Shown here: in pieces, positions 12,995 through 35,087 of the stretch
Numbering within the stretch: position 1 is the first letter of the stretch
How the letters are laid out: every line of letters starts with the position of its first letter
Assembly: GCA_036517375.1 (NCBI GenBank)
Contig: DATDWM010000017.1
Span: forward strand, 3,208 to 67,207
Reading direction: 5' to 3'
Source: Minisyncoccota bacterium
Lineage (GTDB): Bacteria; Patescibacteriota; Minisyncoccia; Phycocordibacterales; UBA9973
Length of the DNA stretch: 64,000 nucleotides
Notes under the pieces: model-generated
Databases searched by the model: none
Seen by the model: only the letters and a program-made list of their open reading frames with translations
Told to the model about the DNA's origin: nothing
Program-made: the position numbers and the translations under genes

Positions 12995-14182
12995 CTAGAA
13001 ATTACTATAGTAGGATTTGGCGGTGGTGGTACAAATATCCTTATCGTTACCGCCCAATATCTTACAATATTCGAGCGCTTCTTTGTCGGAATGATAATAA
13101 GAAATTATTTCTTTAACTGCCCCGATCACGCAGTTGGTGATGTCATTTGGGTCAGTTGCCATCTCACACATTTCTTTTGTTTTTTGCTTCTCATGATGCG
13201 CTTGGTTGGCCACGTCTCGGCCCATGCTCTGGTTGCAGATATCCCGATACGGCTGCTCTACGGTGGCGCATAAGTCAAAGACTTTTTTATAATTAAATCC
13301 GGTAACCTGGAGCGCGTAAGAAGTCTGCCCTAGGTAACATTGACCTTTATATTTAGTATCCACCGCAGTACAAGGATATAGTGGCTCCGCGGGTTTCAAA
13401 TATTTTACTCCGTTTTTATGATCCGCTACATTGGTACTATCAATGATATTCTGCATGTACACCCCGCCATAACAAGACTCTTGCTCCCAGAAGCCAGTCA
13501 AGCTGTCGCACATTTTAAGTGAATCAAAAAGCTCATCTTTTAAAATTGCCATGATGCCGTGCCCTAGCCCATGCACGCAATTGTAATAATTAAAATTATA
13601 AGTATCTTTACCGGGAATATCAGCGCAGATAGTATTTAATTCTTTGGATAAATTTTCAAGCCCAATGTTCGCGATCATGCCTTCCATAATTCCATGATAA
13701 TATCCGCTCCAACAAAAAGAATCCCCGTTCGCAAATGCTTCGGAAATAGTTTTATAATTCCCTACCGCCTGCCTACCAATGACATGCATAAGCGGATGAC
13801 ACTGGGAGAGTATAGAGGAACTTTCCTGGGAACGTTTCTGTATATCAGCACTCGCAGTAGTCACGCCATAGTCTTTTACTAAAGTTTTATAATGATCTAC
13901 GTAACAGCCGTATAAAGCAGGCGAATTTTCACACAAATCAGCATCGTAAACATAGGGCACACCCTTCGCATTGATGGGATTATCCGCGAGGATCGATCTG
14001 CTTCTGGTTAAATTATTGGTCTCACCCATGGCTCGACTTAATACTTGGCTGTCCGGCTGGAAAACCATCGGGCTCGCATTCTCCTCCCCGGGATTTTGGA
14101 AATATTTCGCATATACTATTCCAAACCCTACCGCGAGCACCAGAAGAGCGATCAGTACTTTTACTATAGTTCCAGTTTTCAT
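12995..14182 (-). CDS. Secreted/anchored Cys-rich repeat protein, hypothetical
   Basis: N-terminal TM/signal segment; repeated Cys-Gly-His containing units (CVHGLGHG, CHPLMHVIG, CYGGVYMQ). Confidence 0.55.
   Translation of the reverse strand: MKTGTIVKVLIALLVLAVGFGIVYAKYFQNPGEENASPMVFQPDSQVLSRAMGETNNLTRSRSILADNPINAKGVPYVYDADLCENSPALYGCYVDHYKTLVKDYGVTTASADIQKRSQESSSILSQCHPLMHVIGRQAVGNYKTISEAFANGDSFCWSGYYHGIMEGMIANIGLENLSKELNTICADIPGKDTYNFNYYNCVHGLGHGIMAILKDELFDSLKMCDSLTGFWEQESCYGGVYMQNIIDSTNVADHKNGVKYLKPAEPLYPCTAVDTKYKGQCYLGQTSYALQVTGFNYKKVFDLCATVEQPYRDICNQSMGRDVANQAHHEKQKTKEMCEMATDPNDITNCVIGAVKEIISYYHSDKEALEYCKILGGNDKDICTTTAKSYYSNF
12996..13033. repeat. Right copy of 38-bp direct repeat (forms true 3' end of downstream gene)
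   Basis: Same 17-mer and similar extension; reverse complement encodes ...TTTAKSYYSNF*. Confidence 0.7.
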
Positions 14183-14252
14183 ATTTGTGTTTTAATAATA
14201 GCATTTTAAAAAACAAATTGAAGTCTAGGTTGTTAATTGATATAATCAGGCT

Positions 14253-19378: not shown

Positions 19379-19409
19379 TGCTCCGAACTTGGGATGATGT
19401 TTGAATGAT
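19379..19409. repeat. Copy 1 of ~30-bp intergenic motif
   Basis: CTCCGAACTTGGGATGATGTTTGAATGA; shares consensus with copies at 20489 and 21204. Confidence 0.5.
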
Positions 19410-19460
19410 AATTCAACGACAAAATAAATATATCTACATACCTGATTTGAGAGATGCACA

Positions 19461-20039
19461 CTATATATAAAAAAATACGCTTTTAAGAAAACTATAAGCA
19501 TATACTGCGAGATATGCGAGGGAGATGTTAAATACAAAATTGCCCAACCCCAAAGGAATCATTACCCTCCAAAACGAATAGCGTGCTAAGCCCATTGAAA
19601 TAACAATAAAATCGTTTGAGAAAGGAACGAGTGAGCCGTAGATGAAAAAGGCAATCGGCAGTACTCTCGGACGAGCTAGACAAAAAGCGCAAAACTTTTT
19701 GAGGGTTTTTTGTATTCCCTGCGGAATTATAGCTCCGCCGCTATACCCAAGGTAATAAGAAGTTGAGTCGCCCACTATCACGCCGCTTGCAGCAGAAATA
19801 CCAACTAAAAGAGGATTCAGTCCGCCACTTGCCAACATTACAAGAACCACGTGATATGGTACGCCGCTAAAAGTTGACAAACCGCCAAGCAGGGCAAGGA
19901 CGAACATAAGTACATAGGCATTTTCTATCCCGATAATACGAATTATTTCTTCGGGTGAAGAATAATAGAAAAAAACCGTGGCTCCAATAAAAAGTAATAA
20001 CGGAGTTAAGCGTAAAATATACCAAGAGTTTATTTTCAT
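19461..20039 (-). CDS. DedA/TVP38-family membrane protein
   Basis: Multi-TM with VIVGDSTSYYLG motif typical of SNARE-associated/DedA family. Confidence 0.65.
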   Translation of the reverse strand: MKINSWYILRLTPLLLFIGATVFFYYSSPEEIIRIIGIENAYVLMFVLALLGGLSTFSGVPYHVVLVMLASGGLNPLLVGISAASGVIVGDSTSYYLGYSGGAIIPQGIQKTLKKFCAFCLARPRVLPIAFFIYGSLVPFSNDFIVISMGLARYSFWRVMIPLGLGNFVFNISLAYLAVYAYSFLKSVFFYI

Positions 20040-20389
20040 AAAGAGGGTTGAGGATGAGGTGGCACAACAATGCGTATAACCCTCGCCTCAACAAGACCTT
20101 CTTGATTGGTCGGTCCGACCACAATGACGAAATCGCCTACTTTTAATGGTTCCGTCCAGGTTCTTCTGCCCTTTCTTATGTCGGTATCTTGATTGGTCAA
20201 TATAAGCACTTCGGAACCCTCGTTGGTTTTTATCACGAAATTACCTTCCTTAACTTCAACAGCCTCGCCAAAATACTGCACTCGTGTCCAGTGAAAATAA
20301 GCTCGCATACCGCCAAGCGCTACAAAAATAGCAAATATGAATATGCTAATCAATAAATAAATTGTTTTTCGGGAGATTTTACGATTCAT
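20036..20389 (-). CDS. Membrane-anchored hypothetical protein
   Basis: N-terminal TM; 4-bp overlap with DedA gene suggests operon. Confidence 0.5.
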   Translation of the reverse strand: MNRKISRKTIYLLISIFIFAIFVALGGMRAYFHWTRVQYFGEAVEVKEGNFVIKTNEGSEVLILTNQDTDIRKGRRTWTEPLKVGDFVIVVGPTNQEGLVEARVIRIVVPPHPQPSL

Positions 20390-20488
20390 ATTTATATTGT
20401 ACTACTTTCTAACCCACGCCGCTATTTAAAAGTTCTAACCCCACGATAGGTATAAAAAATAACCATTATAAAATATGATTTAAAATTT

Positions 20489-20518
20489 GGCTCCGAACGT
20501 GGGAGGATGTTCGCAAGG
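20489..20518. repeat. Copy 2 of ~30-bp intergenic motif
   Basis: GGCTCCGAACGTGGGAGGATGTTCGCAAGG; contains CGAAC/GTTCG 5-bp inverted repeat. Confidence 0.5.
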
Positions 20519-20566
20519 CTATTATACAGGAAAATTAGGCTTAATTCCGTTATCCTGTATGGATTT

Positions 20567-20893
20567 TCACCCAAATACCAATACTTTATCCGAACTCTCC
20601 ACCATTTTGAGCAAGTCGGACATCGTGGAAACGGGGCAAACTTTGCTTTCTTCCTTTCCACGAACTTTAAGACAACTACCACAAGCATAAATCTCGCCTT
20701 TTAATTCTTTGAATTCCGACACCTTTTTTGAAATATCAAAATCTTTTGTATCGGGAATGATATCCAATTCTGAACCTTCGCTCATTAAAAAGATTTCTAC
20801 TTGATGTCCAGCTTTAAGCGAAGTAATTCCAAGGCGGAATGTATTCCATATATGTTCGGGTTTATTTGATTGTAAAATCATTCCTAGTTTCAT
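20567..20893 (-). CDS. DsrE/DsrF-like family protein
   Basis: ~108 aa, conserved Cys (ACGSC) and fold-typical hydrophobic pattern. Confidence 0.45.
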   Translation of the reverse strand: MKLGMILQSNKPEHIWNTFRLGITSLKAGHQVEIFLMSEGSELDIIPDTKDFDISKKVSEFKELKGEIYACGSCLKVRGKEESKVCPVSTMSDLLKMVESSDKVLVFG

Positions 20894-20899
20894 AGTAGC

Positions 20900-21142
20900 T
20901 TAACTTAAATCTTTCTTCTTTTCTTCAAACTCTTTCTTATCAATTTCGCCTTTAGCATATCTTTCCTTTAAAATATCCAGAGCCTTTTTACTACTGTCCA
21001 TCCCGTTTGCCTTGCTATTACGGACAAGCCAAACAATAAAATAAATAACCGCTACCCAAAATAAAAGCATCATAATTCCACCTCCGAACCAGCCCATCAT
21101 ATTACCCCAACTCCCAAAACCATCATATATTCCATACATCAT
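20900..21142 (-). CDS. SHOCT-domain membrane protein
   Basis: TM helix followed by [31 protein letters not shown]-like tail. Confidence 0.6.
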
Positions 21143-21203
21143 AGTTTTTATAGTTAATATTAATAATTTTTATTTCTATAACATTTTATCATAAGAAGTC
21201 ACT

Positions 21204-21232
21204 GGCTCAAACTTGAAATGATATTCGTAAGG
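21204..21232. repeat. Copy 3 of ~30-bp intergenic motif
   Basis: GGCTCAAACTTGAAATGATATTCGTAAGG. Confidence 0.45.
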
Positions 21233-21252
21233 TAATAATTAATAATCCATAA

Positions 21253-21918
21253 CTATTTTTCGTCAATAACTCCAATTGATTGCTCATACAGTTTTTCTGT
21301 CTGTGAAAACATCCAGTTGATAAATTTTAGTACTTTTGGATGAAACTCGCAAAGGTTGAAATTGAAGTTAGACAGCAATAGAATCAAGTGACTCCCAACC
21401 CAACTCGTAGAACCTCCTTCTAGGCTTAGAAGTACTTCTTTGTGCAAGCTTTCATCCTCTCCACGTGGGTAATCAACAGACCGATGAGATGCCCATTTGT
21501 TAGAAAGGACATTTACCATTCCTTCTTTATCCACAACTGAATCCCATATCTCTTTTAACTCTAAATCTTTTGGAGGATTTAATTTTAAGGATTTAATAAA
21601 AAAACTAGCACGCCTTAATTGACAAAGGTATGCTTGTACCTCGAACTTTATATTTGCTTGTGATTTTTTAATTTCTGCCCATTCTTCATCTGTATGAAAT
21701 CTGTTTACATATAATGATGGAACTCCTTTTTCTTCTAATTTCCTAAAATTGGCAAAATGATATTCTAAAGCCTCAGGTAGAACTCTTTGAAAAGTTAAGA
21801 TTTGAAAGTTTTTTAAGCCTTGCCATTTTTTCTTATCAGCAATATTTTTCTCACGCGATTGTACTGGAACAAAAGTACTTATAAGAATTCTTTTAGAAGA
21901 GTTGTTATTTTTTGACAT
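21253..21918 (-). CDS. Hypothetical protein, 3rd gene of NTPase operon
   Basis: Co-directional, 38-bp gap to upstream gene; no recognisable domain. Confidence 0.5.
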   Translation of the reverse strand: MSKNNNSSKRILISTFVPVQSREKNIADKKKWQGLKNFQILTFQRVLPEALEYHFANFRKLEEKGVPSLYVNRFHTDEEWAEIKKSQANIKFEVQAYLCQLRRASFFIKSLKLNPPKDLELKEIWDSVVDKEGMVNVLSNKWASHRSVDYPRGEDESLHKEVLLSLEGGSTSWVGSHLILLLSNFNFNLCEFHPKVLKFINWMFSQTEKLYEQSIGVIDEK

Positions 21919-21956
21919 ATAGATTTGAGTTTATTTTTTGATTCATAATATTTAGA

Positions 21957-23474
21957 CTATCTGGGGATTTTAGACACTTCAAAAATAAAACGTTTACGTC
22001 TTGTGTCTTCAGGCTTATACTCCCACCCTGTGCCATATCTATCTATTTTACTTTTATCTAGGTCTCCACAGGTTATAAGTCTTAATTTATTTTTTCTTAA
22101 AAATGTTTTAAGATACTTACCTTTAATAACTAAAACACTACCGTGGTCTGCCAAATGATGTTTATCCTCTCCATAGTTACTAACACTTGATACAAAGCCA
22201 TTTTGCCAATTTATAGTTTTAATCACTAATTCATTTTTACTAGTATAGTATTCCAGTGTCCCTTTGCGTTGTTTTAATTTAAGCTGTTCAACTATTTCTG
22301 GTGCAGGAAAGACAGGATTAAAAATATCGCCAAAATTTGTTTCTGAAATTATTCCGTAAGCAGGAAACAACTTACCATTTAGTTCTGTTCTATTGTGGTC
22401 AGAAACAAATAATTTCTTACTTTTATAAGCAAATATTGGAACTTCATCAATTAAACAGTTGTTACAACTATAAGAAGGCGGGAAAACTTCTTTTTTATCA
22501 TTTATTTTATTTAAATTTTCTGTCGTAAAACCGCTAAAAGTCTTACGGGAGAGCAATTTATCTTCAAAACGAATGCGTGTGTCCTCATATAACACAACCC
22601 ACGGCTGGTTTAAACCTGTTAGATTATAGATGTTCTTCCTCTTTAATTTGTCTTTCAACCAAAATTCTGTTTTTACCTTAATATTCTCGAATTTTATAAA
22701 ATCTGGTCTATCGGTAATCAAGTCCTCAACCCACACTGGTTCATAATTATAATTCTCCTGTAAAAACTCCCTCCAGCGAGATTCTTCGACTGGTAAGTTT
22801 TTTATACACCACATTAGAAAAGTTTGTATCCCGTGATAGGCACAATAATGCAATTTAGTTTTATAGGACTCATTTCTGGAGTAACCCCGATTCCACCTAG
22901 TAGGTACATCTTCCCAGTATTTTTTACCCTTTCGATAACCAAGCACCTTCATATTCTGCAACAATTTCTTGTAACCTTTTTTGCCCGCATATTTAAATGT
23001 ATTGCATATGTTATCAAGCTTATATTTGTAGTCACCCCCTCCTAGGGTGTACTCTACGAAATGTTCAGAACTATATCGATACCAATCTTGCTGGGTATCG
23101 GGAGTAAACTGTGTGGGGGTAACTAATTTAAGAGACTCCGCAAATATATTCTTAGCAGAAGATTTAAAATTACTTAGATTTTCCAAGATATTTTTTGATA
23201 AATAAGCAATCTTGAAATGGTTACAGCGTTTTGCAGTTTTTAAGATACTTTCTTTGATGGAAAGTATTCTTTCGGGAGCCTTGTAGCTAAGACGAAATAA
23301 AACTTTTAGAGAGTTCTCGACTATATCTAGGTTCTCAGAAAGTAGATTTTTCCTTAGTTCATTAATGGTTTTTTCATTAATTAGAGCATTTTCATATAGT
23401 GCTTTTTCTGCACTACCTCTCCATTTAAAAGGGGCAACACCGAGATATTTAGATATAAATTGTAAGGATTTCAT
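21957..23474 (-). CDS. Hypothetical protein, 2nd gene of NTPase operon
   Basis: Starts 4 bp after stop of 1578-aa gene; no recognisable domain. Confidence 0.5.
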   Translation of the reverse strand: MKSLQFISKYLGVAPFKWRGSAEKALYENALINEKTINELRKNLLSENLDIVENSLKVLFRLSYKAPERILSIKESILKTAKRCNHFKIAYLSKNILENLSNFKSSAKNIFAESLKLVTPTQFTPDTQQDWYRYSSEHFVEYTLGGGDYKYKLDNICNTFKYAGKKGYKKLLQNMKVLGYRKGKKYWEDVPTRWNRGYSRNESYKTKLHYCAYHGIQTFLMWCIKNLPVEESRWREFLQENYNYEPVWVEDLITDRPDFIKFENIKVKTEFWLKDKLKRKNIYNLTGLNQPWVVLYEDTRIRFEDKLLSRKTFSGFTTENLNKINDKKEVFPPSYSCNNCLIDEVPIFAYKSKKLFVSDHNRTELNGKLFPAYGIISETNFGDIFNPVFPAPEIVEQLKLKQRKGTLEYYTSKNELVIKTINWQNGFVSSVSNYGEDKHHLADHGSVLVIKGKYLKTFLRKNKLRLITCGDLDKSKIDRYGTGWEYKPEDTRRKRFIFEVSKIPR

Positions 23475-23478
23475 AGTA

Positions 23479-26400
23479 TTATGCTTTTGTTAAAGATAAC
23501 CGCATAGATTCTTCGACCGTTTCTTTTAGAGGATGGAAAGCATACTTCTTCAATTCAGGAAAAAAAGAATCTATAACGTCTGAGGTTCTGACTAATAAAT
23601 AATTCAAATAATAACTACTTTCTGATGACTTATAAATAGAGAGACGGATAACTTTTTTTAGAAATTCCTTTTTATTTTCAAATTCCATTTGTGCTAGCTT
23701 ATTAACAAGCTCTGGAAGATTGTATGGATATTCTTGGTTGTTGCAAAAATCCAAAATGTCCCCCTTAATCTCCTTAAGGTAAGCTTTGTCCTTATTTTTT
23801 ACAGACAAATCAAGTAGTGAACATAGAATATTGTAGGTAAGAAATTCAACGTTATTTTCTTTACACCACAGTTTTACCTTGCTAATAATTTTAAGGTCAG
23901 AGTTTGAAACAATCTCTAGTATTAAACCATCAATTTTATATTTTTTATCTTCCTTAATAAAAGAATCTAGTAATCCAGTTATCTTTTTCATAGACCTGTT
24001 CCGTGCAAAAGATTTAGCCTGTTTAATGACTGCTAGCGGTATTAACTCTGAGTTAGGGGTAGTTGGTATCACTGAATATCCGTCAAGTTCTAATTGGGCG
24101 ATATACTTCTTTATATCCCCATACTCTCTTTTTAAATCATTCTTTTGTTTTATAAACGTTACTAATTCATTTAATAGGGTTAATCTTGCCCCAACATATA
24201 CATATCTACGCAAGTAAATACAATATCTACTTAAAAATAATCTGGCGTTAGGAATATCATTATTTTTTAGAGAGTGGTCAATCAAGGCGTAGTAAATAGC
24301 TTTGATATTTGGTTGTTCTCGGTCAGTCTCTTCATCAAATCTTACTAAACCTAGCAATGGCATTAGTTCTGGAGCAATAGTTTGATATTTATACCTATCA
24401 AGACTAGCCAGAATTACTTTTTTTAACCCCTCATTCAAATTAACTTCTCCTTTGTTTGTCAGTTCTATTAGATAATCAAGACCTAATTCATAATTTGAAT
24501 ATGCAACTGATTCTATAAAACCTAATTTATAATACCAGCTACCCTCAACAACACTACTGATTTTATCGATATATTTAAGAATGGTTTCAAAATCATCTTT
24601 TTTATTTTGAGTTCTAAGACAGTCAATTAAATTCAAAATTCTCAAATCCTCTTTTGCCCATAAGCCACGAGAATATTTAAGAGAATGCTTATAGATATTC
24701 TCTGCTGATTCTCTATAACCCTTACTATTTACTGTTCTTGCTAATTCCTTCAGACCATCACTTTTTGCAAAATTATCTTGCTTTTCTTTGGTTTTAAATT
24801 CAAGTATCTTTTTTTGGTATAACACTACCTTTGATACTAAGGCGGGGGTGATTGGCAACAGTTCATCGAAGGTGGTCTCTAATAAACTTTGATTTTTCTC
24901 TAAGATTGTATTTTTGAAAACCGATTCGACGACATCAACAAAAGATTCTAATTTTTTAGGAAAATACTTAGCTACAGTATTCAAACAAATCCCTACGAAT
25001 GAAGTTGCATTTTGATAGTAGACAAAAGCTGTTTTCTCAAAAGGAGATTCTCTTAGTTGTTTATACTCACTAACTTGTGAAATTTCCTTTTTAAATACAC
25101 TAAGACTTTCCATAATAAAATGGTTTAATCTTTTCCAGTCCATTTTTTTATTTTTTACAAAAAGAATATTACGGTAAAGCAATATGTAGGTTGAAACTAT
25201 GTTAGCGAAAGCATCATTCTCATAGTCCTTAAAATGTTCTTTATGATATTTTTTCTGGGCATCAATGAGAAATTCCTTCGGATTAAAATTTTTAGTAACA
25301 ATACTTAACAAAGCGGTTCTTCGGAGGAATAACCCCTTGCCGTTTATTCCCCAGTTAGAATACATATCTCTGTGATAAGGTGGCTCAAAGTCAACTCCAG
25401 AAATTAATTTAGATATGGAAGATTTTGATTCGCTTGTGTTTAACAAATATGAGACTTCGGCTATATCTAGTTTCTGATTTATATATCGGTCGTTGATTAA
25501 ATATTTGAATAACTGATACTGTTTAATAAGAGTTTTGAGTTTCTTTTTGGCAGTAGTATCTTTTTTCTCTATATAAAGATACGCATAGGTTATGAGCTGT
25601 ATTGCCTTGGATTGCCTATTTATAAAATGTAACACTGCCTTTTTTTCTTTTGGGTATTGAACTCTATTCAACTTTATTAACATACTAGCTCGGAATCCCA
25701 CTGTATAAGGTTTAGGCTCTTTAAAACGAATATTTTCAATATATCTTACAGCTCCATCGTATCTACCTAAGTTAATACAAGCTTCTAAATACTCTACGAT
25801 ATTATCCCAGTACATATCCGTATTACCATTTTCCATCATTTTTCTATCCCAAAGAATATCTTTATTAAAAGAAATACGAGCTAATCCATCTTCTAAAAAT
25901 CGAAGGGCTAAATTTTTAGAAGGACTGTCTTCTCTGGTATATAAAAAATTACCCAATCTAATTCGCTTCATTACCCATTCTCTTAAATTGTACAGAGATT
26001 GGTTTTGTAATACATCAAGTTCAGCCTCAACTTCTTTAAGAAGGTTCGGTGTACCGATACTGCTTTTCAGAAAAGTATCGTCATCGGACATCCGAGCAGG
26101 ACTTAAATTACTAATCTTAACTGAATATTTAATAAAATTCTCTAAATCATTTTTTGCATCAAAGTATTTTGTAAAATAATGTAAAGATTCAATTTTTGAA
26201 CCATAATCTAGTTTAGAATCAAAAATTGTTTGAATGAAATTATTTTGAATTAACTTCTTTGTAATTTGCTTAGTAAACGGGTCAGAACTGCCAATTACCC
26301 GCAAATGATTAGTTAAGTATTTTTTCGGATAGGCTAATTTGAGATTACCTTTAGTTGAATAGAATCTTATTATTTTTCGGTTATATTCTTTCTGAACACT

Positions 26401-28215
26401 TGTTAGTTTATTACGAATGAATCTTCTAAAACTATCGTGGTATGGTTCGATATATCCTCCACGCAAGTTCACGAAGGGACTTATTTTTTCGTTAAGGTCA
26501 TTAAAATTCTCTAACTTAATTTTCGCTACCTTATAGAGTGTGTCTCTTTGGATTTCAGCAAAATGAAAACTTAGACAACCAAGACAGTGTTTCTGTCTTG
26601 TGTTCAGGCTGTCCCAGATGGGTTTATACCAATCGAAGACTTCTTTATAATCTTCTTTGCTGTCTATAATGCTGTCATAGTCTTTTCTTGAAATCTTTTT
26701 TAACTTTTGTGTTAAATAAAAAATAGAAATAGCCAACCCTTTCGTTTTTTTAGATATTTTTCTTAATTGGTCAATAGTTAGATTAATTTCCGCATTTTTA
26801 AAATATTCTTTTATTTCATTCTCGCTAAATGACAAACTAATAGAAATCTTTCTAGAAGTTTTGTCTGGAAGGTTTTTTATCTGTTGCGGAAGATATTCTT
26901 TTGTCCAAGTACTTAACAAAAAGACTACGCCAGCATATTGAATTGAAGGTATGGCATTTAGGATAGACTTATCTTTGTAGTTGTCAGTTTCTACTTGGTC
27001 TAAAGCGTCTACAATTATTACAATTTTTTTATCCTTACGTTTTAATGCTGATTCGCTTACTTGATTTAATGTTTTCTCAAACATTTTATTTATAAATTCT
27101 TCATTATCCTTAAGGCTGACAGTTTCTTTTGTAAGTCCCAAGTCAAAAAAGCGTTGAATCAGGTCAACCTTAAACCACATACTACTTAAACGTTCTTTCT
27201 CATAATTTAAATTCGAGTCAATTTTCTCAAAAGGTCTAATACGACAAAGGTAGGGTAAAAAATCAGCGTTGGTTTGTGTAAGCTTTGAGAGTAAGACTGT
27301 TTTCCCCGAACCAGAGGGGGCAAAAAGGAAAACGAAACCACCTTTCTTTTTTTGTTTATTTACAGCTTTAAGTATCTCAACTTCAACCGCTTTTCTTTGA
27401 ATGTAATTTTTAGGAGTATTTATCTCGTGAACTAAACTCGTTTTAATAATTTCAATCAATCCAAGTACATCCGCCTTTCTAATGATAGTTTCTTTTTGAG
27501 TAAATTTTTTAAAGGTTCTACTTATAAAAGCATCAACTCTATCATTATCAGAAATGCCAAGAAGCCCTAATTCTTTTTTGAGTTTGGATTCTATGCCGTC
27601 ATTGTCTGTGGAAATTTGAAATTCAAAAGATTTTATAAAAGCTTCTAGTTCGCCACGCTTTAGACGAGTTTTAGTGAAATTAGATTTAATGTTTAAAAGT
27701 TCCGTTTTATATTTATCACTAAATTTACTCCAAGTTATCTTTTTCTGATTCAACTTTTTTATATCACTAAGAAACTTCTTCAAGTCTGACCCAAGTGGTT
27801 TGTTGCTAGCAAGAATTAACTTAACTTTATTCTTTTGTCCTTTATGAAATCTCCAAGCTTTAAGGAATTTAAAAATTACAGTTCCTTCGTACTTAGAATT
27901 TTTCTTAGCACTTTTTTTCTTGGCAGTTTCCTTGGATTCCCATAGACCACTATAAGTCCAACTACTGCTTACTACATCAGTGTACTTAAGTTGAATGACT
28001 TCAATGGACTTATCTTCAAAAAATCGGGTTATGTCCTCTATACGTCTTTTTGCTCCTCCTTTCCTGTCTGGTTTGATTTCGACATAAGAAAGCTTACTAT
28101 CGGTCTTTATTAATTTTGTAAACTCTAGAGCAGAAAAAACCTTTTCGAAGTACTGAGAAGTATCTTCGTTTCGATTTAGTATATGACTTTTGGATGTCTT
28201 CTTTTTTCCTTTCAT
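23479..28215 (-). CDS. Giant (1578 aa) P-loop NTPase, STAND/AVAST-like candidate defence protein
   Basis: Walker A GGFVFLFAPSGSGKTVLLSK (~aa 297), Walker B KIVIIVDALDQVE (~aa 400), >1100-aa helical C-terminal region, N-terminal region with PD..QLK (PD-(D/E)xK-like) pattern. Confidence 0.6.
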   Translation of the reverse strand: MKGKKKTSKSHILNRNEDTSQYFEKVFSALEFTKLIKTDSKLSYVEIKPDRKGGAKRRIEDITRFFEDKSIEVIQLKYTDVVSSSWTYSGLWESKETAKKKSAKKNSKYEGTVIFKFLKAWRFHKGQKNKVKLILASNKPLGSDLKKFLSDIKKLNQKKITWSKFSDKYKTELLNIKSNFTKTRLKRGELEAFIKSFEFQISTDNDGIESKLKKELGLLGISDNDRVDAFISRTFKKFTQKETIIRKADVLGLIEIIKTSLVHEINTPKNYIQRKAVEVEILKAVNKQKKKGGFVFLFAPSGSGKTVLLSKLTQTNADFLPYLCRIRPFEKIDSNLNYEKERLSSMWFKVDLIQRFFDLGLTKETVSLKDNEEFINKMFEKTLNQVSESALKRKDKKIVIIVDALDQVETDNYKDKSILNAIPSIQYAGVVFLLSTWTKEYLPQQIKNLPDKTSRKISISLSFSENEIKEYFKNAEINLTIDQLRKISKKTKGLAISIFYLTQKLKKISRKDYDSIIDSKEDYKEVFDWYKPIWDSLNTRQKHCLGCLSFHFAEIQRDTLYKVAKIKLENFNDLNEKISPFVNLRGGYIEPYHDSFRRFIRNKLTSVQKEYNRKIIRFYSTKGNLKLAYPKKYLTNHLRVIGSSDPFTKQITKKLIQNNFIQTIFDSKLDYGSKIESLHYFTKYFDAKNDLENFIKYSVKISNLSPARMSDDDTFLKSSIGTPNLLKEVEAELDVLQNQSLYNLREWVMKRIRLGNFLYTREDSPSKNLALRFLEDGLARISFNKDILWDRKMMENGNTDMYWDNIVEYLEACINLGRYDGAVRYIENIRFKEPKPYTVGFRASMLIKLNRVQYPKEKKAVLHFINRQSKAIQLITYAYLYIEKKDTTAKKKLKTLIKQYQLFKYLINDRYINQKLDIAEVSYLLNTSESKSSISKLISGVDFEPPYHRDMYSNWGINGKGLFLRRTALLSIVTKNFNPKEFLIDAQKKYHKEHFKDYENDAFANIVSTYILLYRNILFVKNKKMDWKRLNHFIMESLSVFKKEISQVSEYKQLRESPFEKTAFVYYQNATSFVGICLNTVAKYFPKKLESFVDVVESVFKNTILEKNQSLLETTFDELLPITPALVSKVVLYQKKILEFKTKEKQDNFAKSDGLKELARTVNSKGYRESAENIYKHSLKYSRGLWAKEDLRILNLIDCLRTQNKKDDFETILKYIDKISSVVEGSWYYKLGFIESVAYSNYELGLDYLIELTNKGEVNLNEGLKKVILASLDRYKYQTIAPELMPLLGLVRFDEETDREQPNIKAIYYALIDHSLKNNDIPNARLFLSRYCIYLRRYVYVGARLTLLNELVTFIKQKNDLKREYGDIKKYIAQLELDGYSVIPTTPNSELIPLAVIKQAKSFARNRSMKKITGLLDSFIKEDKKYKIDGLILEIVSNSDLKIISKVKLWCKENNVEFLTYNILCSLLDLSVKNKDKAYLKEIKGDILDFCNNQEYPYNLPELVNKLAQMEFENKKEFLKKVIRLSIYKSSESSYYLNYLLVRTSDVIDSFFPELKKYAFHPLKETVEESMRLSLTKA

Positions 28216-28396
28216 TTATAGGCACATATTAACATTTTGCCCAGAAAAGAACCAAAGATAAACATCTGGGCTTTAGAGTTTCCAACATTCATCCAGAATG
28301 CCTATTTAATGGGGTAAAATGCCCCCTTCCTCTTTGGTATGTGAGGTTTTGAACAATGGTATAATTAGAGTAGCTTTTGAAAAATAAGCTCATTAA

Positions 28397-28831
28397 ATGC
28401 CAGCAGGAAGACCAACAGAATACAGTGAAAACATACTCTCTAAATCAAGAGAGTATGTTGATTCTTGTGTGGATGAGCTAGAAGACCGACCAAAAACAGT
28501 TGGGACAAAATCCACTTCCTACGAGAGGGTTATCAAGGTTAATTTACCTACAATAGAAGGTCTGGCGAGCCATTTAGGGCTTGCTAGAAGCACTTTATAC
28601 GAGTGGAAGGACAAATACACTGAATTTTCGGACATCTTAGAGATACTTTTAGCACATCAGGCAACTGCTCTTATTAATAATGGTTTGTCAGGAGACTATA
28701 ATGCGACCATAGCTAAGCTTCTTCTAATGAAGCACGGCTATAAGGAAGATGCCCGAATATACGAGAGAATCACTGGGAACGAAATTATCTTCAAGGATAT
28801 GTCTGTGGTAGGAGTTAGTGAGTCCGATTAA
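28397..28831 (+). CDS. HTH DNA-binding protein resembling phage terminase small subunit
   Basis: N-terminal GRPTEY and HTH LPTIEGLASHLGLARSTLYEW pattern typical of TerS-like proteins. Confidence 0.45.
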   Translation: MPAGRPTEYSENILSKSREYVDSCVDELEDRPKTVGTKSTSYERVIKVNLPTIEGLASHLGLARSTLYEWKDKYTEFSDILEILLAHQATALINNGLSGDYNATIAKLLLMKHGYKEDARIYERITGNEIIFKDMSVVGVSESD

Positions 28832-28840
28832 AGAAAGTAT

Positions 28841-29305
28841 TTATTCTGTGAAATATTGGCTATGTTTTTCCTTAAAATCACTATCATTAATAGAACCAAT
28901 ATCTGTGCAACCACCATCAACGTCTGAAAAAGCCCCTGCTCCACACTGGAAAATTACTTTGTTTTCATATCCGTCTCTCATCATTGAATAAAAAAATTCA
29001 TCTGTATTTCTACTCAAATTTTTGTTTACAATTCTGTAAACTTCTGTATAAACATAGCATTTATTTTTAACTGAATTGAAATGGTTAGTTGTATATACAG
29101 AATAATTATTATCCAACTTACTTTTTTCCTCCTTGTCTACTTCTATGGCTTTTTGTGAACAATTGTAAGCATATTCTCCATACTTAGTGTCAGAAATTAT
29201 ACCTACCTTACTTTCATTGTTACTTTTTATTACATAGGTAAATATCAGTATCAATAAAACGATAACCCCAATTTTAAACCAGTTTTCTTTTAAGAATTTT
29301 GTCAT
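28841..29305 (-). CDS. Secreted/membrane-anchored hypothetical protein
   Basis: N-terminal TM/signal; several Cys. Confidence 0.5.
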   Translation of the reverse strand: MTKFLKENWFKIGVIVLLILIFTYVIKSNNESKVGIISDTKYGEYAYNCSQKAIEVDKEEKSKLDNNYSVYTTNHFNSVKNKCYVYTEVYRIVNKNLSRNTDEFFYSMMRDGYENKVIFQCGAGAFSDVDGGCTDIGSINDSDFKEKHSQYFTE

Positions 29306-29308
29306 ATG

Positions 29309-30172
29309 TTAGTTGCAATAAACTGTGTTACCGATAAAATTACAAATTGTTGTTGGGTGAGGTGGTGTTGAATAATAAGCATCGGGTTCACACGCTTGAT
29401 AATATTTGTTCATAAGCGGAGTAGATTTTATTGCCAAATCAGCTCCCTTAGAAGCTAGTTCGCTTGACTCTTGTGAACCAGCATCAGCTTCTTCCATACG
29501 AGCCAAGTTGTCGTCTAGTTGTTTTTGTATACTGTCATAAGCTTTCTTGGCACTTACGCATTCTGGGCTATTGTGTATTTTATCTTCGGCTTCTTGTTTA
29601 GCATTGGCTTGGTCTTTAAGCTGTTGATTTAAAATATCATATGCAGAGGGTTGAGAAGATGTTGGACTAGGTTGTCCGCAGGAAGCTTCACCTATGGCTG
29701 GGCAGTAAAAAGGATTCTCAACAGAACAATTGGAAATATTGTAAGATTTTCCATTGCATACTCTTATATTATCCAGTTCACTTTGAGTGTAACAACCAGA
29801 AGCGTTGTCGGGGCTACAGAAAAACTTTTTACCAAGAGATGGACAGGTGTCTTTTATTTGTTGACCATTGCACATCACTATATTTTCTTGGGTGGGTATA
29901 CTCTTTTTAACTGGGGCTGTTACTTTAGGAGCAGGTGTAGTTGTTTTGGGTTGTTGATTTTTTAAATCATCAATTTGTTTTTGTAGTTCTTGAATTTGCA
30001 CTGTCTGGTCTGGTGCTGGTTTAGTATCCGTTACTTGCACTTGTGGTGCAGGAACTTCTTTTTTATGGAATATGCTCCAGCTAAAAGGATTCCACCAAGA
30101 GGCAAAAGTAATTTGTGGAATCAAAATGATTGCGACCAAGATAACAGAAACTATATTTAACTTATTTTTCAT
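29309..30172 (-). CDS. Secreted Cys-rich protein with Pro/Gln-rich linker (start set at MKNKLNIV signal peptide)
   Basis: Signal-peptide-like segment begins at internal Met; upstream 50 codons of ORF-track call overlie a structured GC-rich non-coding-looking element. Confidence 0.55.
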   Translation of the reverse strand: MKNKLNIVSVILVAIILIPQITFASWWNPFSWSIFHKKEVPAPQVQVTDTKPAPDQTVQIQELQKQIDDLKNQQPKTTTPAPKVTAPVKKSIPTQENIVMCNGQQIKDTCPSLGKKFFCSPDNASGCYTQSELDNIRVCNGKSYNISNCSVENPFYCPAIGEASCGQPSPTSSQPSAYDILNQQLKDQANAKQEAEDKIHNSPECVSAKKAYDSIQKQLDDNLARMEEADAGSQESSELASKGADLAIKSTPLMNKYYQACEPDAYYSTPPHPTTICNFIGNTVYCN

Positions 30173-30363
30173 AAAATAAAAAGCTAGCTGATAAGAGCTA
30201 GCGTGGAAAACACAGAACCCCACGCCAGCTAGGTCTTGCGACCCCATATCAGTTTCCCGATATAGCCCTTGGAAGAGTTGCTGAACGCAGGGTTCAGTAT
30301 CTTCCAAGGGTCTTTTGACCATATCCTAAAGGTGTCTTTAGGGGTTAGGTCGCATATTAAGTT
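30173..30363 (-). promoter_or_regulatory. Highly structured GC-rich leader/intergenic RNA element ending in terminator-like hairpin + U-run
   Basis: Nested inverted repeats (CCCTTGGAAG...CTTCCAAGGG 10 bp; CTGAAC/GTTCAG; CCTAAAG/CTTTAGG; CGTGG/CCACG; GCTAGC x2) and on minus strand GCTAGCucuuaucaGCTAGC followed by UUUUUAUUUU right before ATG. Confidence 0.4.
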
Positions 30364-30723
30364 TTACTTATTCATCGTATCATTATATAGCTCTTTTGTT
30401 AATCTAACTCTAGCTAAGATGTGGAGCTTTAATGCAGTAGAAAAGTAATAAAGACGTGGATTTTTTATTACACGCTTAGCTTCAAGTGGTGTTATCTTGA
30501 TAATTACACCATTAGCACGATACCAAAATCTTCTATCTTTTCTAATAACCTCCGCATTGTATTGAAAAAGATTACGACCGTGAATCCTCGCAAGGTTGCC
30601 TTCAATGAGTCTAATGCTCAATTTAACTATTTCCATAAAATCTCGGCTTAAACTAAAAAAATCTTTCCCACACGGAAAAAGATTTACGACTATTATCTCT
30701 CCCTTGTGGGTTGGATTTAGCAC
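30364..30723 (-). CDS. Hypothetical protein
   Basis: 119-aa ORF, no recognisable motif. Confidence 0.4.
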   Translation of the reverse strand: MLNPTHKGEIIVVNLFPCGKDFFSLSRDFMEIVKLSIRLIEGNLARIHGRNLFQYNAEVIRKDRRFWYRANGVIIKITPLEAKRVIKNPRLYYFSTALKLHILARVRLTKELYNDTMNK

Positions 30724-31202
30724 CTTACTTTCGCAGGTCGCTGGGCGGATTAAAATGAGCCAATTCTCTACTCGCCACTCTCGATAGACTTATTTAGTTG
30801 TGAGATAAGTTTATATAAGGCAAAAAATAAAAGCAAGTATACACCCAAATTTCAAGGGATTTTCGGACATCATAAGAGAGTTTTTACACGTTTTTAGAAT
30901 CCTAAAATAACCATATTTTATAGCTTATATTAGCCGTTTAGCCCTATGCTATAATAGTGGTAGAAGTTCCTTAAATAGCTCTGACTACAACTCCTGCCAC
31001 CAAGCAGTCAAAAAACTGGAATAAACTGGTTCAGTCAGATACCGTTTTGGATAATACTGTGAAATTGGTGATGATATGTGAGGAGGTCAACCTCTTAAAA
31101 ATGATTTAAGAAAATGCGTCAGCCAATTGTGCAAGATTAGACCGAGATAACAAAAAATACTTATGGTGTTTTGTTATTTCAGTCTAGTTTTGGAACAAAA
31201 AC

Positions 31203-31230
31203 AAACACCCTATGTTGGTGTTTTTATTTT
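31203..31230 (+). terminator. Terminator-like hairpin + T-run in non-coding stretch
   Basis: AAACACC-ctatgtt-GGTGTTT followed by TTATTTT. Confidence 0.3.
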
Positions 31231-31376
31231 GCCCAAAAGCTTCCTAAAAATATCGTTGCGTTAATTCATTGGTAAATATACACAAAGTCCTTTTATGGCT
31301 TTGCGGGTCGCATTACCAATGAACCTGCACAGCCATAAGTGGATTTTTTTGTTTCTTAGTAGCTAGCTTAAATAAA

Positions 31377-31631
31377 ATGCGAAGCATAGAAAGAAGTTAT
31401 AAGAAAATTCAAACTCGTAATCCTAATCTAGGAACATATCCTTGTTTAGCACAAGCGGTTAGAGAAAGAAGATTTTCGAGAAAATCTTTAGTAAAGGTAT
31501 TTAGTAAATTAATGCCTGAAAATGAATACGCCAAAAGCGAAACAAAAGAACTAATTGATTATCTAGAGAATATCACCAACTCATCCGAGGAGGGCGAATT
31601 TCGCACTAAATTTCATTCGAGAGGCATTTAA
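31377..31631 (+). CDS. Small hypothetical protein upstream of recombinase
   Basis: 84-aa ORF co-directional with recombinase; weak support. Confidence 0.3.
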   Translation: MRSIERSYKKIQTRNPNLGTYPCLAQAVRERRFSRKSLVKVFSKLMPENEYAKSETKELIDYLENITNSSEEGEFRTKFHSRGI

Positions 31632-32196
31632 AAAAACAAAATGGAATTGAGTGCGGAAGCAGTAAAAGATTTGAGGGAAACACTAGAACTGGAAATAGGA
31701 GTGAGGAATACAAACAGGATGAGTGATAACGACTTAGAACATATAGGTTGTTTTTTCCTTGAAACTTTTAAGCAGGGTTTGAAGAGAAGAGTGTCTAAAA
31801 TTTAATATCTAAAACAGCTTTAGGGGTTCGCTGTATAAACCACTCCTATAAACGAAACCAGTAAATCGGACTCAAATGCGAAAGCACGGAAAAACAGTTT
31901 ATCCCTCTGTCCGTGCCATCTGATTTGTGCCTGATTGCTGATTACAGAAAATGGATTTTCAAAGGTAAGTCGCATTTGTTTGTAAAAGATATTGATAAAT
32001 ATAGCTGTAATAATTACCTTTTAGAGAGAATCAGAGGTAAAAGGGAGGGTGTGTCTAAAATGAGAAAAATGTTATAATGAGGAAGCCAGACCGAGTGAAA
32101 ATCTATAAGCCACATTTAGTAATGCTTGTAGGTAAGAATGAGGTAGCAACCACTTGGTCTGGCGATTAAGTAAAGTTGTTACCTCATTTTTATTTT

Positions 32197-33876
32197 ATGA
32201 ATCCAATAGATTTTACAAAGTTAAAGGTAGGAAATTACAATCGTAAGTCGTCAGAGAGTGAAGATAGGCAGGTTCTTTCAATTCAATCACAGATTGATGA
32301 AGCTAAAAGAATAGCGGATTATTATAAACTCTCTCCATATGTAGAGGTATACAAAGAATCAAAATCAGCTAAAACAGAAGGTGTGAGACCAGAGTTTTCG
32401 AGGATGATGAAAAGAATAAGAAATAAAGAGATTGATGCGATAGCGTGTTGGAAAGCTGATAGACTAGCAAGAAATATGGCAGAGGGCGGTGAACTAATTG
32501 ACCTTTTGAGTTCTGGAACTTTAAAGGCAATAATCACTCACGATAAAGTATTCTATCCTTGGGATAATGTTATGGTTTTAGCAATAGAGTTTAGCCAAGG
32601 AAAACAATTCGTAAAAGAACTCTCTATAAATGTTAAGAGGGGTCAAACTAAAAAGGCAACTATGGGTTATCCGCACGGACTAGCCACTCTTGGCTTCACA
32701 AACGACAAAACAGAAGAGAAAGGAAATCGTAAATGGCTAGTGGACGAAGTTCGTCTTCCTGTAGTTAAGCAAATGTTAGAAATGTTTTTATCTGGTAATT
32801 ACTCTGGCACACAAATCTATGATTGGGCTATTAATGTTGCCAAACTAACTACCCCTAATCACAAAAAATGTGGTGGAAATTTTATTGCCTACTCTAGGGT
32901 TTATACAATTCTTAAAGACTCTATCTATGCTGGATTTTTCTACCAGCAAGGACAAAGGTATGAATTGTCTAAAGAACTCCCTCGTCTTATTTCAGAAGAT
33001 GACCATAAGAAGATTTTAAGAATGTTGTCTAGTAGAAAACTTCCAAAGACTCAAACTCACGAAAATCCTTACTCTGGTTTTATAGAATCTCCTTCTGGTG
33101 AATTTGTAGGAGCAGATATGAAGTTTCAAATAATTTGCCAGTGTAAACACAAGTTTGCATATCAAAATAAAACAAACTGTCCTAAATGCGAAATAGCCAT
33201 AAACGATATTAAAAACCCTAAGTATCTTAGTTATGCTTATTACTACAACGTGCCAAAAAGAAAGAAGAGAGAATCCGTAAAATACATCGAGGAGGGCAAA
33301 ATTACCACTTTTTTTCGCTTATATGCAGAGAAAAATCTAACTATGTCAAAATCCCTAGCCCAATGGTGCAAAAGACACATTAAGGAGATAAAAGACAAAG
33401 AGATAGAGACAGGTTTAATTGAATCCTCTGGTAATACTCAACGATTAGAGCAATTAGAGGGACGATTAACTAGATACCGTCAAATGCTTGCAGATGGTCA
33501 AATTGAAACTTCTGAATATGATTCCGATGTAAAATCAATAAAGGATGAAATTTCAGAAATTAAAAATCCTAAAATTAAAAATCGTGATTGGCATCAAGTT
33601 GCAGAAGATATTGTTGATTTAACTACTGAAATAATTGAAACGCTGGAAAATGGTTTGGTAAAAGACCAAAGAGCGATGTTTACAAAGCTTGGTTCGAACC
33701 TAATATGGAATGAGGAAATACTAAATATTATCAACGCAGAACCAATGCAGAAGCTGATTGATGGCTTAAATGAAGCTAAACAAAAGAATCCCAAGTTCGA
33801 ACCTGAAAATATTGTTGATACAACAGAACAGAATGAGGTTTTTGAGGACATTTGTCCTATCTTGCTCCGGGGGTAG
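32197..33876 (+). CDS. Large serine recombinase (resolvase/invertase-type catalytic domain + recombinase/zinc-ribbon/coiled-coil C-terminal region)
   Basis: N-terminal YNRKSSESEDRQVLSIQSQ (catalytic Ser), ...ARL..., Cys pairs (CQCKHKF...CPKC), ~560 aa; ATG at 32197 preferred over upstream TTG. Confidence 0.85.
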   Translation: MNPIDFTKLKVGNYNRKSSESEDRQVLSIQSQIDEAKRIADYYKLSPYVEVYKESKSAKTEGVRPEFSRMMKRIRNKEIDAIACWKADRLARNMAEGGELIDLLSSGTLKAIITHDKVFYPWDNVMVLAIEFSQGKQFVKELSINVKRGQTKKATMGYPHGLATLGFTNDKTEEKGNRKWLVDEVRLPVVKQMLEMFLSGNYSGTQIYDWAINVAKLTTPNHKKCGGNFIAYSRVYTILKDSIYAGFFYQQGQRYELSKELPRLISEDDHKKILRMLSSRKLPKTQTHENPYSGFIESPSGEFVGADMKFQIICQCKHKFAYQNKTNCPKCEIAINDIKNPKYLSYAYYYNVPKRKKRESVKYIEEGKITTFFRLYAEKNLTMSKSLAQWCKRHIKEIKDKEIETGLIESSGNTQRLEQLEGRLTRYRQMLADGQIETSEYDSDVKSIKDEISEIKNPKIKNRDWHQVAEDIVDLTTEIIETLENGLVKDQRAMFTKLGSNLIWNEEILNIINAEPMQKLIDGLNEAKQKNPKFEPENIVDTTEQNEVFEDICPILLRG

Positions 33877-33936
33877 GGATCGAACCTACGACCAATCGCT
33901 TAACAGGCGACCGCTCTACCGCTGAGCTACCCCGGA
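33865..33936 (-). tRNA. tRNA-Asn (anticodon GTT)
   Basis: Cloverleaf folded manually: acceptor TCCGGGG/CCCCGGA, D-arm GCTC-AGCGGTA-GAGC, anticodon stem GTCGC/GCGAT loop CTGTTAA, T-arm GTAGG-TTCGATC-CCTAC; no encoded CCA. Confidence 0.85.
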
Positions 33937-34083
33937 ATTTTATTTTCAAAAGAGGAAAGAAAACCGTACAATACTCTCGACCTACGGTCGCTGGTACTTT
34001 TCCATCTCTTCGCAAATTGGCGAATCGTACGAAAAAGCCTTTCTCATCCTGGCGCAAGCAAAGCAGTTTGCTTGCTTACGATG

Positions 34084-34156
34084 TGGACCGTACAGGACTC
34101 GAACCTGCCACCCCCTCATTGCAAATGAGGTGCTCTACCAGATGAGCTAACGGCCC
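34084..34156 (-). tRNA. tRNA-Ala (anticodon TGC)
   Basis: Acceptor GGGCCGT/ACGGTCC with G3:U70 Ala identity pair, anticodon loop TTTGCAA, T-loop TTCGAGT. Confidence 0.85.
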
Positions 34157-34617: not shown

Positions 34618-34972
34618 GGTAGGTGCTGGATAACTACTCTGTATTTATACAGGGAGGAAAGTCCGAACACAGTCCCGATTTATCGGGAAAATAAGTAGTG
34701 GGTAACGCCCACATGTAGTGATACATAGGTGCGAGCAGAGACGCCGATGCCGAAAGGCTAGGACCCCTTTGGGGTAGCCTGATAGGAATATCAGGGTGAA
34801 ACGGCTAAATCCTTACTTCTGTGCAAGATCGCGCCCTTTGAATGCCTCAGGACTAGTTCCGAGCGTAGTCGAGGGGAGAATCGCTTGATCCGCCTGGTAA
34901 CAGGCACGACAGATAAATTGTTATCATTCCAACGCAAGTTGAAAAACAGAATTCGGCTTATAGGCACCTACA
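34618..34972 (+). ncRNA. rnpB: RNase P RNA (bacterial type)
   Basis: GGGAGGAAAGTCCGAACAC (P4 5' strand) and ACAGAATTCGGCTTATAG (P4 3' strand); P1 pairing GGTAGGTGC/GCACCTAC defines ends. Confidence 0.8.
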
Positions 34973-35087
34973 AGAAAATGAGAGTCCCCTACAGAAATGT
35001 GGGGGATTTTCTTTTAAATAATTACCTGAAATCTTTTCAGCATTTTAGCATTTACGTACGACCGTTTCTTATTGCTAAAATAAAATA

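Follow-up and report, generated by a model that had tools for sequence, protein, structure and literature searches.

The 64,000-nt window analysed here, a stretch of contig DATDWM010000017.1 from an ultra-small groundwater bacterium (Paceibacterota), contains an AT-rich island whose right-hand end is occupied by the gene of a large serine recombinase (LSR, also called integrase below) and by the tRNA-Asn gene into which it runs. The open reading frame (ORF) of the recombinase extends on the forward strand from a TTG at 32176 or an ATG at 32197 to 33876, and its stop codon TAG (33874–33876), as read from the sequence, falls in the T-stem of the tRNA-Asn, which is encoded on the opposite strand. 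The three codons before it, L-R-G (33865–33873), coincide with the discriminator and the acceptor 3′ strand of the tRNA, and the two genes overlap by 12 nt with the tRNA ends assigned by Rfam and by 13 nt with those assigned by ARAGORN. The initial annotation of the window had placed the stop codon inside the 3′ end of tRNA-Asn with an overlap of about 12 nt and a tRNA-Ala next to it; the former is confirmed by ARAGORN, Rfam and direct reading and the latter by ARAGORN. Translation from the ATG at 32197 yields 559 aa, the product named by the gene callers in four public assemblies, and the resulting N-terminus, MNPIDFTKLK, matches those of homologs in the alignment, which backs this start.

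The protein has catalytic, recombinase and Cys4 zinc-ribbon domains, the architecture of an LSR, and the identity first assigned to it is borne out by Pfam (Resolvase PF00239, E 2.6e-15; Recombinase PF07508, E 7.6e-8), by PHROG (phrog_95 integrase, E 3.3e-42) and by residues that are invariant in an alignment of 32 homologs. These comprise Y14, R16 and the nucleophile S18 of the YxRxS catalytic motif, Q25, and the zinc-ribbon cysteines C314, C316, C328 and C331; the Pfam zinc-ribbon model itself gave no match to the recombinase. The homolog alignment also displays a helical, charged region at ∼400–470, a candidate for the coiled-coil insertion of the zinc-ribbon domain that controls direction in LSRs, and matches in the PDB are limited to LSR catalytic domains (3g13, 3bvp). 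Database searching with a cutoff of E ≤ 1e-10 brought up 513 homologs, the best 120 of which are mostly ∼560 aa long and 50–85% identical, and a search of IMG/VR with the integrase family gave a single distant match, the family being almost absent there.

The overlap with tRNA-Asn is not peculiar to this window. A scan of GTDB with one genome per species gave at least 555 confirmed homologs, the majority of them from Paceibacterota and kindred ultra-small bacteria. For comparison we retrieved 80 loci (numbered with the prefix L, as are all comparison loci). At 34 of these 80 the end of the integrase ORF overlaps an intact minus-strand tRNA-Asn, and in the large majority of the 34 the low coordinate of the tRNA equals the end of the stop codon minus 12. 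Because the same offset is repeated in so many loci, the overlap is far beyond chance and is a trait of the family. A further 6–9 loci have a partial tRNA-Asn, cut by the contig end or split by an insertion or intron, and roughly half of the 80 loci share this position on tRNA-Asn. Seven lie on other tRNAs (Tyr and Gln twice each; Ser, Leu and Trp once each), ∼17 are without a tRNA and the rest are truncated. The C-termini of the 120 best homologs track the local acceptor stem, ending in …LRG, LGR, LRE, LPR or LPG, and homologs that receive no stop codon from the T-stem read through as …QGSNLRPI. At one locus (L111, 10086–11630) another LSR, 26% identical, is convergent with tRNA-Asn and ends ∼140 nt from the tRNA's 3′ end.

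The far end of the island is marked by a 26-nt motif, GCTCCGAACTTGGGANGATGTTCGAA, which we call P′-type, using P and P′ for the arms of the element's attachment site attP and B and B′ for those of the chromosomal site attB. With a chance expectation of 0, the window holds two copies, both on the plus strand, at 19380–19405 (1 mismatch) and at 20490–20515 (2 mismatches). The 80 integrase loci contain 43 copies, versus 1 weak match in 80 integrase-less loci obtained by scanning metagenomes with the LysA-like protein of the flank. All copies but one are on the integrase strand (42 of 43), and all but two lie upstream of the integrase at a distance of ∼2.4–10 kb, the exceptions, in L034 and L055, being fused to the integrase end. 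Fusion of the motif to the integrase 3′ end is found in tRNA-less homologs, for example in L034, L055, L174 and the viral contig L172. Judged from these positions, the motif belongs to the elements themselves. In attP-type sites it is joined to the end of the integrase, in attL-type sites it marks the opposite end of the island.

Relatives without the island supply the other half of this junction. In L168 a hairpin and T-run trailer directly follows tRNA-Asn, the same trailer is present in L110, and both loci are without integrase and without the P′ motif. When the 165 nt after the tRNA-Asn of L168 were aligned to the whole window on both strands, the best local alignment was 20428–20495, with ∼84% identity over 68 nt, starting with the last six tRNA bases. 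In the window the trailer is thus found 13.4 kb from tRNA-Asn, adjoining the inner P′ copy. The relatives recovered by the LysA-flank scan share ≤88% aa identity and their synteny is largely scrambled, and the trailer comparison alone was usable.

Taken together, attL consists of the trailer (B arm), GCTCCG and the P′ arm at 20490, and attR of the integrase end (P arm), GCTCCG and the tRNA (B′ arm) at 33864, with only the 6 bp GCTCCG shared between them. When the four kinds of site (attL, attR, the attB homolog, attP homologs) are set side by side, the crossover is narrowed down to this hexamer. The interval 20490–33866 measures 13,377 bp and has a GC content of 0.335, versus 0.405 and 0.428 in the flanks, with a GC step at 20490. 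An AT-rich island to the left of the recombinase had been proposed before and is upheld by these values, but its left edge is at 20490–20495, ∼0.7 kb further left than the ∼21.2 kb then given, and its size is accordingly not ∼12.7 kb. The statement that the left junction has no direct repeat is right for any long repeat but overlooks the 6-bp identity. Neither a tRNA-Asn 3′ fragment nor a hybrid attL is present near 21.1–21.3 kb, where the initial annotation had suggested looking for one, and a left junction at 21.15–21.25 kb was rejected as no att-like sequence is found there. The empty-site comparison it had recommended does give tRNA-Asn and trailer as contiguous (L168, L110), and relatives therefore differ in whether the site is occupied; the neighbour predicted for the empty site is a 117-aa gene (20036–20389) and not the SHOCT/DsrE-like region.

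We also considered that the element itself carries a tRNA 3′ half and dropped this idea, since no second copy of the tRNA-Asn 3′ half is present in the window (best 23–24/41 nt) or within 10 kb in ∼40 related loci. Four loci with what seemed to be the 3′ half only (L014, L015, L018, L031) were likewise rejected as attP sites with a tRNA fragment: their tRNA-Asn genes are split by introns, and the 5′ half is found 250–600 nt further on. Rfam identifies group I introns in the anticodon loop of tRNA-Asn(GTT) in three of them (L015 11696–12007, L018 11678–12049, L031 11717–12002), all from Paceibacterota/Nomurabacteria genomes, and ARAGORN missed these split tRNAs. In L165 (15505–15570) and L103 (5281–5350) the tRNA-Asn terminator is followed by the acceptor 3′ end in inverted orientation (…ATATTGCTCCGGGGAG…), which forms a long palindrome with the tRNA end. 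L123 and L126 were rejected as an occupied/empty pair because they diverge just past tRNA-Ala and not at tRNA-Asn; they are 99.99% identical to just past the 3′ end of tRNA-Ala (position 14195) and completely different thereafter. L126 has a distant serine-recombinase-like match and a LOOT RNA and may carry a different element at tRNA-Ala. Logan contig ends at 33891 were ambiguous as a crossover marker and were not used, and a degenerate P′ pattern matched, in viral collections, only one high-GC contig, by chance.

The two arms opposite the integrase differ in the way expected of attP and attB sites. The P′ arm of attL holds GTTCGCA, a TTCGAA-type motif that is 5 bp further from the core than its counterpart in the tRNA arm, and the spacing is TGCTC-N17-TCGAAC in attP-type sites versus TGCTC-N12-TCGAAC in tRNA-joined copies. 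With the centre set at T/C within GCTCC, GTTCGAA occupies positions 17–23 in P′ and GATCGAA, which is the tRNA T-loop, positions 12–18 in B′; MAFFT independently places a 5-nt gap at exactly this difference. For the LI integrase the zinc-ribbon-domain motif is at bp 16–24 of the attP half-site and at bp 11–19 of the attB half-site, an inward shift of 5 bp (PMC3783163). The shift between the P′ and tRNA arms agrees with this attP/attB rule for serine integrases. On the opposite side, the P arm in the last integrase codons (…VFEDICPIL) has, in a profile from 57 homologs, the consensus …GTTTTTTCTACTAT followed directly by GCTC. From these arms we predict an attP of ∼50 bp (…TGTCCTATCTTGCTCCGAACGTGGGAGGATGTTCGC…) and an attB (…TTTAAAATTTGGCTCCGGGGGTAGGGATCGAACC…), and the synthetic junction sequences predicted from this island are CATTTGTCCTATCTTGCTCCGAACGTGGGAGGATGTTCGCAAGG for attP and ATGATTTAAAATTTGGCTCCGGGGGTAGGGATCGAACCTACG for attB. 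The positions of all features are collected in Table 1.

Table 1. Attachment-site arms, tRNA genes, recombinase and island genes in the window.
Feature	Coordinates	Strand	Basis
Second, degenerate P′-type site GCTCCGAACTTGGGATGATGTTTGAA	19380..19405	+	Motif search, 1 mismatch
B arm, displaced tRNA-Asn trailer (hairpin + T-run)	20428..20489	-	Alignment to L168, L110
attL core GCTCCG, same as attR core	20490..20495	.	Sequence comparison
P′ arm of attL with integrase-tail codons LRTWEDVRKAIIQEN, stop 20536-20538 (putative)	20491..20538	+	Motif search, in-silico joining
DsrE-like protein, cargo	20567-20893	-	Pfam PF02635
SHOCT-domain membrane protein, cargo	20900-21142	-	Pfam PF09851
Three co-oriented cargo genes (221, 505, 1578 aa)	21253..28215	-	ORFs; GC 0.317
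Small-terminase-like helix-turn-helix protein (GP3_package), cargo	28397..28831	+	Pfam PF16677, E 1.4e-20; PHROG small-terminase families
Two exported/membrane-anchored cargo proteins (154 aa; Cys-rich 337 aa)	28841..30169	-	ORFs
LOOT RNA, Rfam RF03000	30231..30351	-	Rfam, 81 bits vs gathering score 46.4
Integrase companions (84-aa and 54-aa proteins)	31377..31805	+	Conserved in related islands
Large serine recombinase (integrase), 559 aa, integrated form	32197..33876	+	Pfam, homolog alignment, PHROG
P arm of attR, in last integrase codons	33840..33863	+	Profile from 57 homologs
attR core GCTCCG (one trailer base, discriminator G73, tRNA positions 72-69)	33864..33869	.	Sequence
tRNA-Asn(GTT)	33864-33936 (ARAGORN); 33865-33936 (Rfam)	-	ARAGORN; Rfam, 70.2 bits
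B′ arm: acceptor 3′ strand, T-stem and T-loop of tRNA-Asn	33867-33886	within tRNA-Asn (-)	Sequence
tRNA-Ala(TGC)	34083-34156	-	ARAGORN

We consider it highly probable that 20490–33866 is an integrative island that its own LSR has placed at the outermost 3′ bases of the host tRNA-Asn. The proposal in the initial annotation of an integrative element with its recombinase flush on the tRNA 3′ end is thereby sustained, by the P′ arm of attL, the trailer in L168 and L110 and the geometry of the family. In this model the attP of the element would lie inside the last integrase codons, with the end of the ORF as P arm, GCTCCG as core and CGAACNTGGGANGATGTTCGAA as P′ arm, and the attB of the host would be composed of the tRNA trailer (B arm), GCTCCG and the acceptor and T-arm of tRNA-Asn (B′ arm). 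Crossover inside GCTCCG, at about tRNA positions 73–70, would require the element to resupply just the last 2–4 nt of the tRNA, and a crossover at the last tRNA bases would for this reason leave the tRNA intact and duplicate no recognisable tRNA fragment. After integration the integrase ORF would read three codons into the tRNA and stop at the T-stem TAG, giving 559 aa ending in LLRG. In the excised circle it would run on into the P′ arm and encode a protein with a conserved tail, 571 aa long and ending in LLRTWEDVRKAIIQEN.

The P′ sequences themselves speak for such a tail. Joining the P and P′ arms of the window in silico creates an open ORF of 571 aa with the tail LLRTWEDVRKAIIQEN, ending …ICPILLRTWEDVRKAIIQEN, in place of the …ICPILLRG of the integrated form. 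The C-termini of natural attP-type homologs match the rejoined tail (e.g. P0020, …LLRTWDDVRKAIIDSS / …VCPTLLRTWDDVRKAIIDSS), and the ORF of tRNA-less homologs continues as …ML(R/Q)xW(D/E)(D/N)VR…. A tail of at least 12 aa (median 16 aa) is open in the integrase frame in 42 of 45 copies of the P′ motif, and its conservation reaches beyond the DNA motif to cover the codons for x-A-I-I; these two features suggest selection on the tail as protein. The P′ arm at 20490 still encodes an open, conserved tail of 15 aa. The two isoforms of the integrase would presumably differ in activity, stability or direction. Literature searches found no serine integrase with a C-terminus that depends on the state of integration, and to our knowledge similar arrangements that alter the integrase exist only for tyrosine integrases (Mx8, SSV1).

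Several observations weigh against this model. Look-ups of identical proteins gave no excised circle, no attP junction and no empty attB of the same species, and contigs with identical flank proteins either carry the island or are too short. The relatives with an empty site are different species (LysA ∼87% aa identity) in which ∼68 nt of trailer were aligned, and the 90% cluster of the integrase contains only the 559-aa form. Dyad symmetry of the inferred attP is weak (0.32–0.34 vs ∼0.25 background), and the crossover dinucleotide is not fixed. A single integration does not explain the second P′ copy at 19380, nor the P′ arrays of relatives. Finally, some attP-type integrase ends are inside large chromosomal contigs and are followed by more island-like DNA (L055, L175), which means that attP-type does not always denote a free element. 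In L175 (11746–19695), on a Bacteroidota-like contig of 568 kb, the genes that come after the attP-type homolog encode OLD-like TOPRIM/AAA, DruA and HATPase proteins, a defence-island context.

If the island was integrated as proposed but has since become an old, immobilised remnant, the recombinase would no longer move it and the overlap with the tRNA would be a fossil. We hold this to be possible, if somewhat unlikely. It would account for the missing circle and empty site in the look-ups above, the island is identical in all assemblies that contain it, from at least five samples, and most of its cargo is unique to this copy. Samples with this contig include SRR2090153, SRR3989344, ERZ27254767, SAMN03842431 and JGI 3300025323. 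Against decay, the integrase has an unbroken ORF in which no invariant residue is missing, both att arms are intact with the P′ tail open while the 19380 copy has decayed, and the GC content of the island is still far from that of the host. We infer that this copy of the island is still mobile. In four independent assemblies of relatives (L060, L072, L074, L080) the contig ends ≤2 nt from the core, GCTC(C/G), where the integrase gene terminates; such breaks are expected if reads support two continuations and would be indirect evidence of heterogeneity in these relatives.

It is improbable that the element truly begins at the outer P′ copy (19380), which would make it ∼14.5 kb long, or that a nested or composite element, built by successive insertions, uses either copy as its left end. 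The outer copy matches the motif with a single mismatch, and relatives have rows of such sites: in L015, L031, L073, L033, L027, L041 and L047 arrays of 2–5 intact P′ sites lie on one strand at distances of 0.5–1.4 kb, and the intervals usually contain one ORF each. The left flanks of the extra copies are mostly not P-arm-like. In the window, however, the trailer homology of the empty site (20428–20495) is immediately to the left of the inner copy, the outer copy reads LRTWDDV in the integrase frame and then meets a premature stop, and the interval 19380–20489 is host-like in composition (GC 0.391). The P′ arrays of the relatives would fit tandem accretion, nested left ends or integron-like cassettes equally.

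Far less credible still is that tRNA-Asn belongs to the mobile element, in the manner of phage-borne tRNAs, with the right boundary beyond it. Many genomes do have the integrase joined physically to the tRNA, as such an element would, yet integrase-less loci (for example L103, L115, L123, L168, L110) have tRNA-Asn beside tRNA-Ala, near DUF192 and LysA-like genes, the acceptor stems vary by host (tails LRG/LGR/LPR/LRE) next to a constant integrase end, and the trailer is displaced to the far end. That the recombinase is a resolvase or invertase with another function and only incidental contact with the tRNA can practically be set aside, as the secondary PHROG match to a DNA invertase covers the catalytic domain only and is opposed by the full LSR architecture of 559 aa, the fixed tRNA offset in dozens of genomes and att arms that follow the spacing rule of serine integrases.

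Between the attachment sites the cargo is largely particular to this copy. The DsrE-like and SHOCT genes nearest attL are within the att boundaries, and are counted as cargo because their segment has a GC content of 0.347 and the true left junction is further left. The 221-, 505- and 1578-aa genes that follow have no homologs in the 80 related islands. They had been described as a defence-like nucleoside triphosphatase (NTPase) operon, a description that is not established: in the 1578-aa protein a P-loop NTPase segment shows only weak likeness to NACHT/AAA (sub-threshold Pfam matches and one weak PADLOC match), and PADLOC, PHROG and Pfam recognised no defence system in the island cargo. A helix-turn-helix protein likened to the small terminase TerS, on the other hand, is verified by both Pfam and PHROG, although the gene is not conserved in related islands. 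It is the sole PHROG match among the cargo; no virion structural or lysis genes were found, as would be needed for a prophage, and neither Pfam nor PHROG recognised a primase or replication protein in the island, which we would call a cargo island, and possibly a satellite-like one, in preference to a prophage. Of the proteins encoded by the island, just the 84-aa and 54-aa companions recur in related islands (10 and 14 of the 80 loci, respectively), where they are always just upstream of the integrase, and they have no Pfam or PHROG match. They are candidates for a regulator and for a directionality factor, which serine integrases need for excision, and might help to control the direction of recombination. 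The remaining cargo is unique to this island copy relative to the 80 loci.

The LOOT RNA is a recurrent companion of these integrases. Our own LOOT model (R1), built from 4 copies, gave 33 matches in ∼29 of 81 integrase loci versus 3 matches in 80 integrase-less loci, and two of those three show other traces of an island. The RNA is mostly 0.5–3.8 kb upstream of the integrase (L012, L013, L015, L018, L031 and ∼24 other loci) and usually precedes, by 20–80 nt, an ORF with a signal-peptide or transmembrane N-terminus. In the window the first ∼50 codons of the 337-aa ORF (29309–30322, minus strand) overlap it and are a spurious translation; the true start of this Cys-rich protein is probably the internal MKNKLNIV at ∼30169. 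Outside the island, the host flank to the right of the tRNAs encodes a bacterial RNase P RNA class A (34618–34976, plus strand) whose 100.2 bits barely reach the gathering score, and GC content spikes to 0.518 at 12001–13000 with ∼0.40 around it.

In its catalytic domain with serine, recombinase domain and Cys4 zinc ribbon the integrase resembles those of the phage type (Listeria A118/LI, phiC31, Bxb1, TP901-1). It also resembles them in its short att sites with few identical central bases and in the outer motif, which is 5 bp nearer the centre in attB (LI, PMC3783163). In contrast to phage-type LSRs, the target here is a tRNA 3′ end, attP is in the integrase ORF so that integration alters the C-terminus, and the island has no recognisable phage genes except the terminase-small-like one. 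With an integrase and a TerS-like gene it also invites comparison with phage satellites of the phage-inducible chromosomal island (PICI) type, which would in addition carry a replication module and a helper-responsive regulator. The tyrosine-integrase islands found by Islander and TIGER likewise lie downstream of a tRNA 3′ end, with the integrase gene proximal to a tRNA that is kept functional. The present island differs in having serine recombinase domains only and no tyrosine integrase (Pfam), and a far end with 6 bp of identity and no displaced tRNA fragment. Myxococcus phage Mx8 (intP/attP) and the Sulfolobus virus SSV1 (int) encode tyrosine integrases with attP within the integrase gene and a tRNA target, and integration alters or splits the product. 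Those systems have longer shared cores, whereas here a serine recombinase would exchange a 13-aa tail for a 'G-stop' read from the tRNA.

Integrons, in which the tyrosine recombinase IntI acts on attI and folded attC sites and cassettes are inserted next to the integrase, offer a parallel for the P′ arrays. Relatives, and weakly the window, have arrays of short units, usually of one ORF, with a repeated recombination-site-like sequence and one recombinase gene. Unlike integrons, the recombinase is of the serine family, the sites correspond to half of attP and lie at the integrase-distal end, and mobility of the units is a candidate property only. Tycheposons of Prochlorococcus are likewise cargo-carrying integrative elements beside a tRNA gene; 27 of 937 have a large serine recombinase and some have terS, and tandem or degraded copies accumulate (10.1101/2020.12.28.424599). 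The island differs from them in the phylum of its host and in that Pfam and PHROG detect no replication genes. We offer as speculation, and as rather unlikely in its entirety, that the family maintains at tRNA-Asn an equivalent, based on a serine recombinase, of an integron or a tycheposon hotspot: P′-bounded single-gene units would be captured or shuffled, the tailed isoform of the circle and the tRNA-truncated isoform of the chromosome would bias integration versus excision or differ in stability, and LOOT would act in the control circuit.

tRNA genes are classic landing sites of tyrosine integrases. According to a standard reference, serine integrases are not known to do the same (PMC4383910), and the window would be a case to the contrary. 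Our comparisons support a serine integrase that targets the 3′ end of tRNA-Asn from an attP inside its own ORF, an arrangement that is widespread in Patescibacteria. Since a crossover at the last tRNA bases leaves no duplicated fragment, island finders that rely on such a duplicate will miss these elements. The genomes make naturally paired attP and attB sites readable, a possible genetic tool for bacteria that are hard to manipulate, and the orphan LOOT RNA, whose function is unknown in Rfam, is given a genomic home in these islands. For the family itself, an integrase C-terminus that depends on the state of integration would constitute a testable principle of control.

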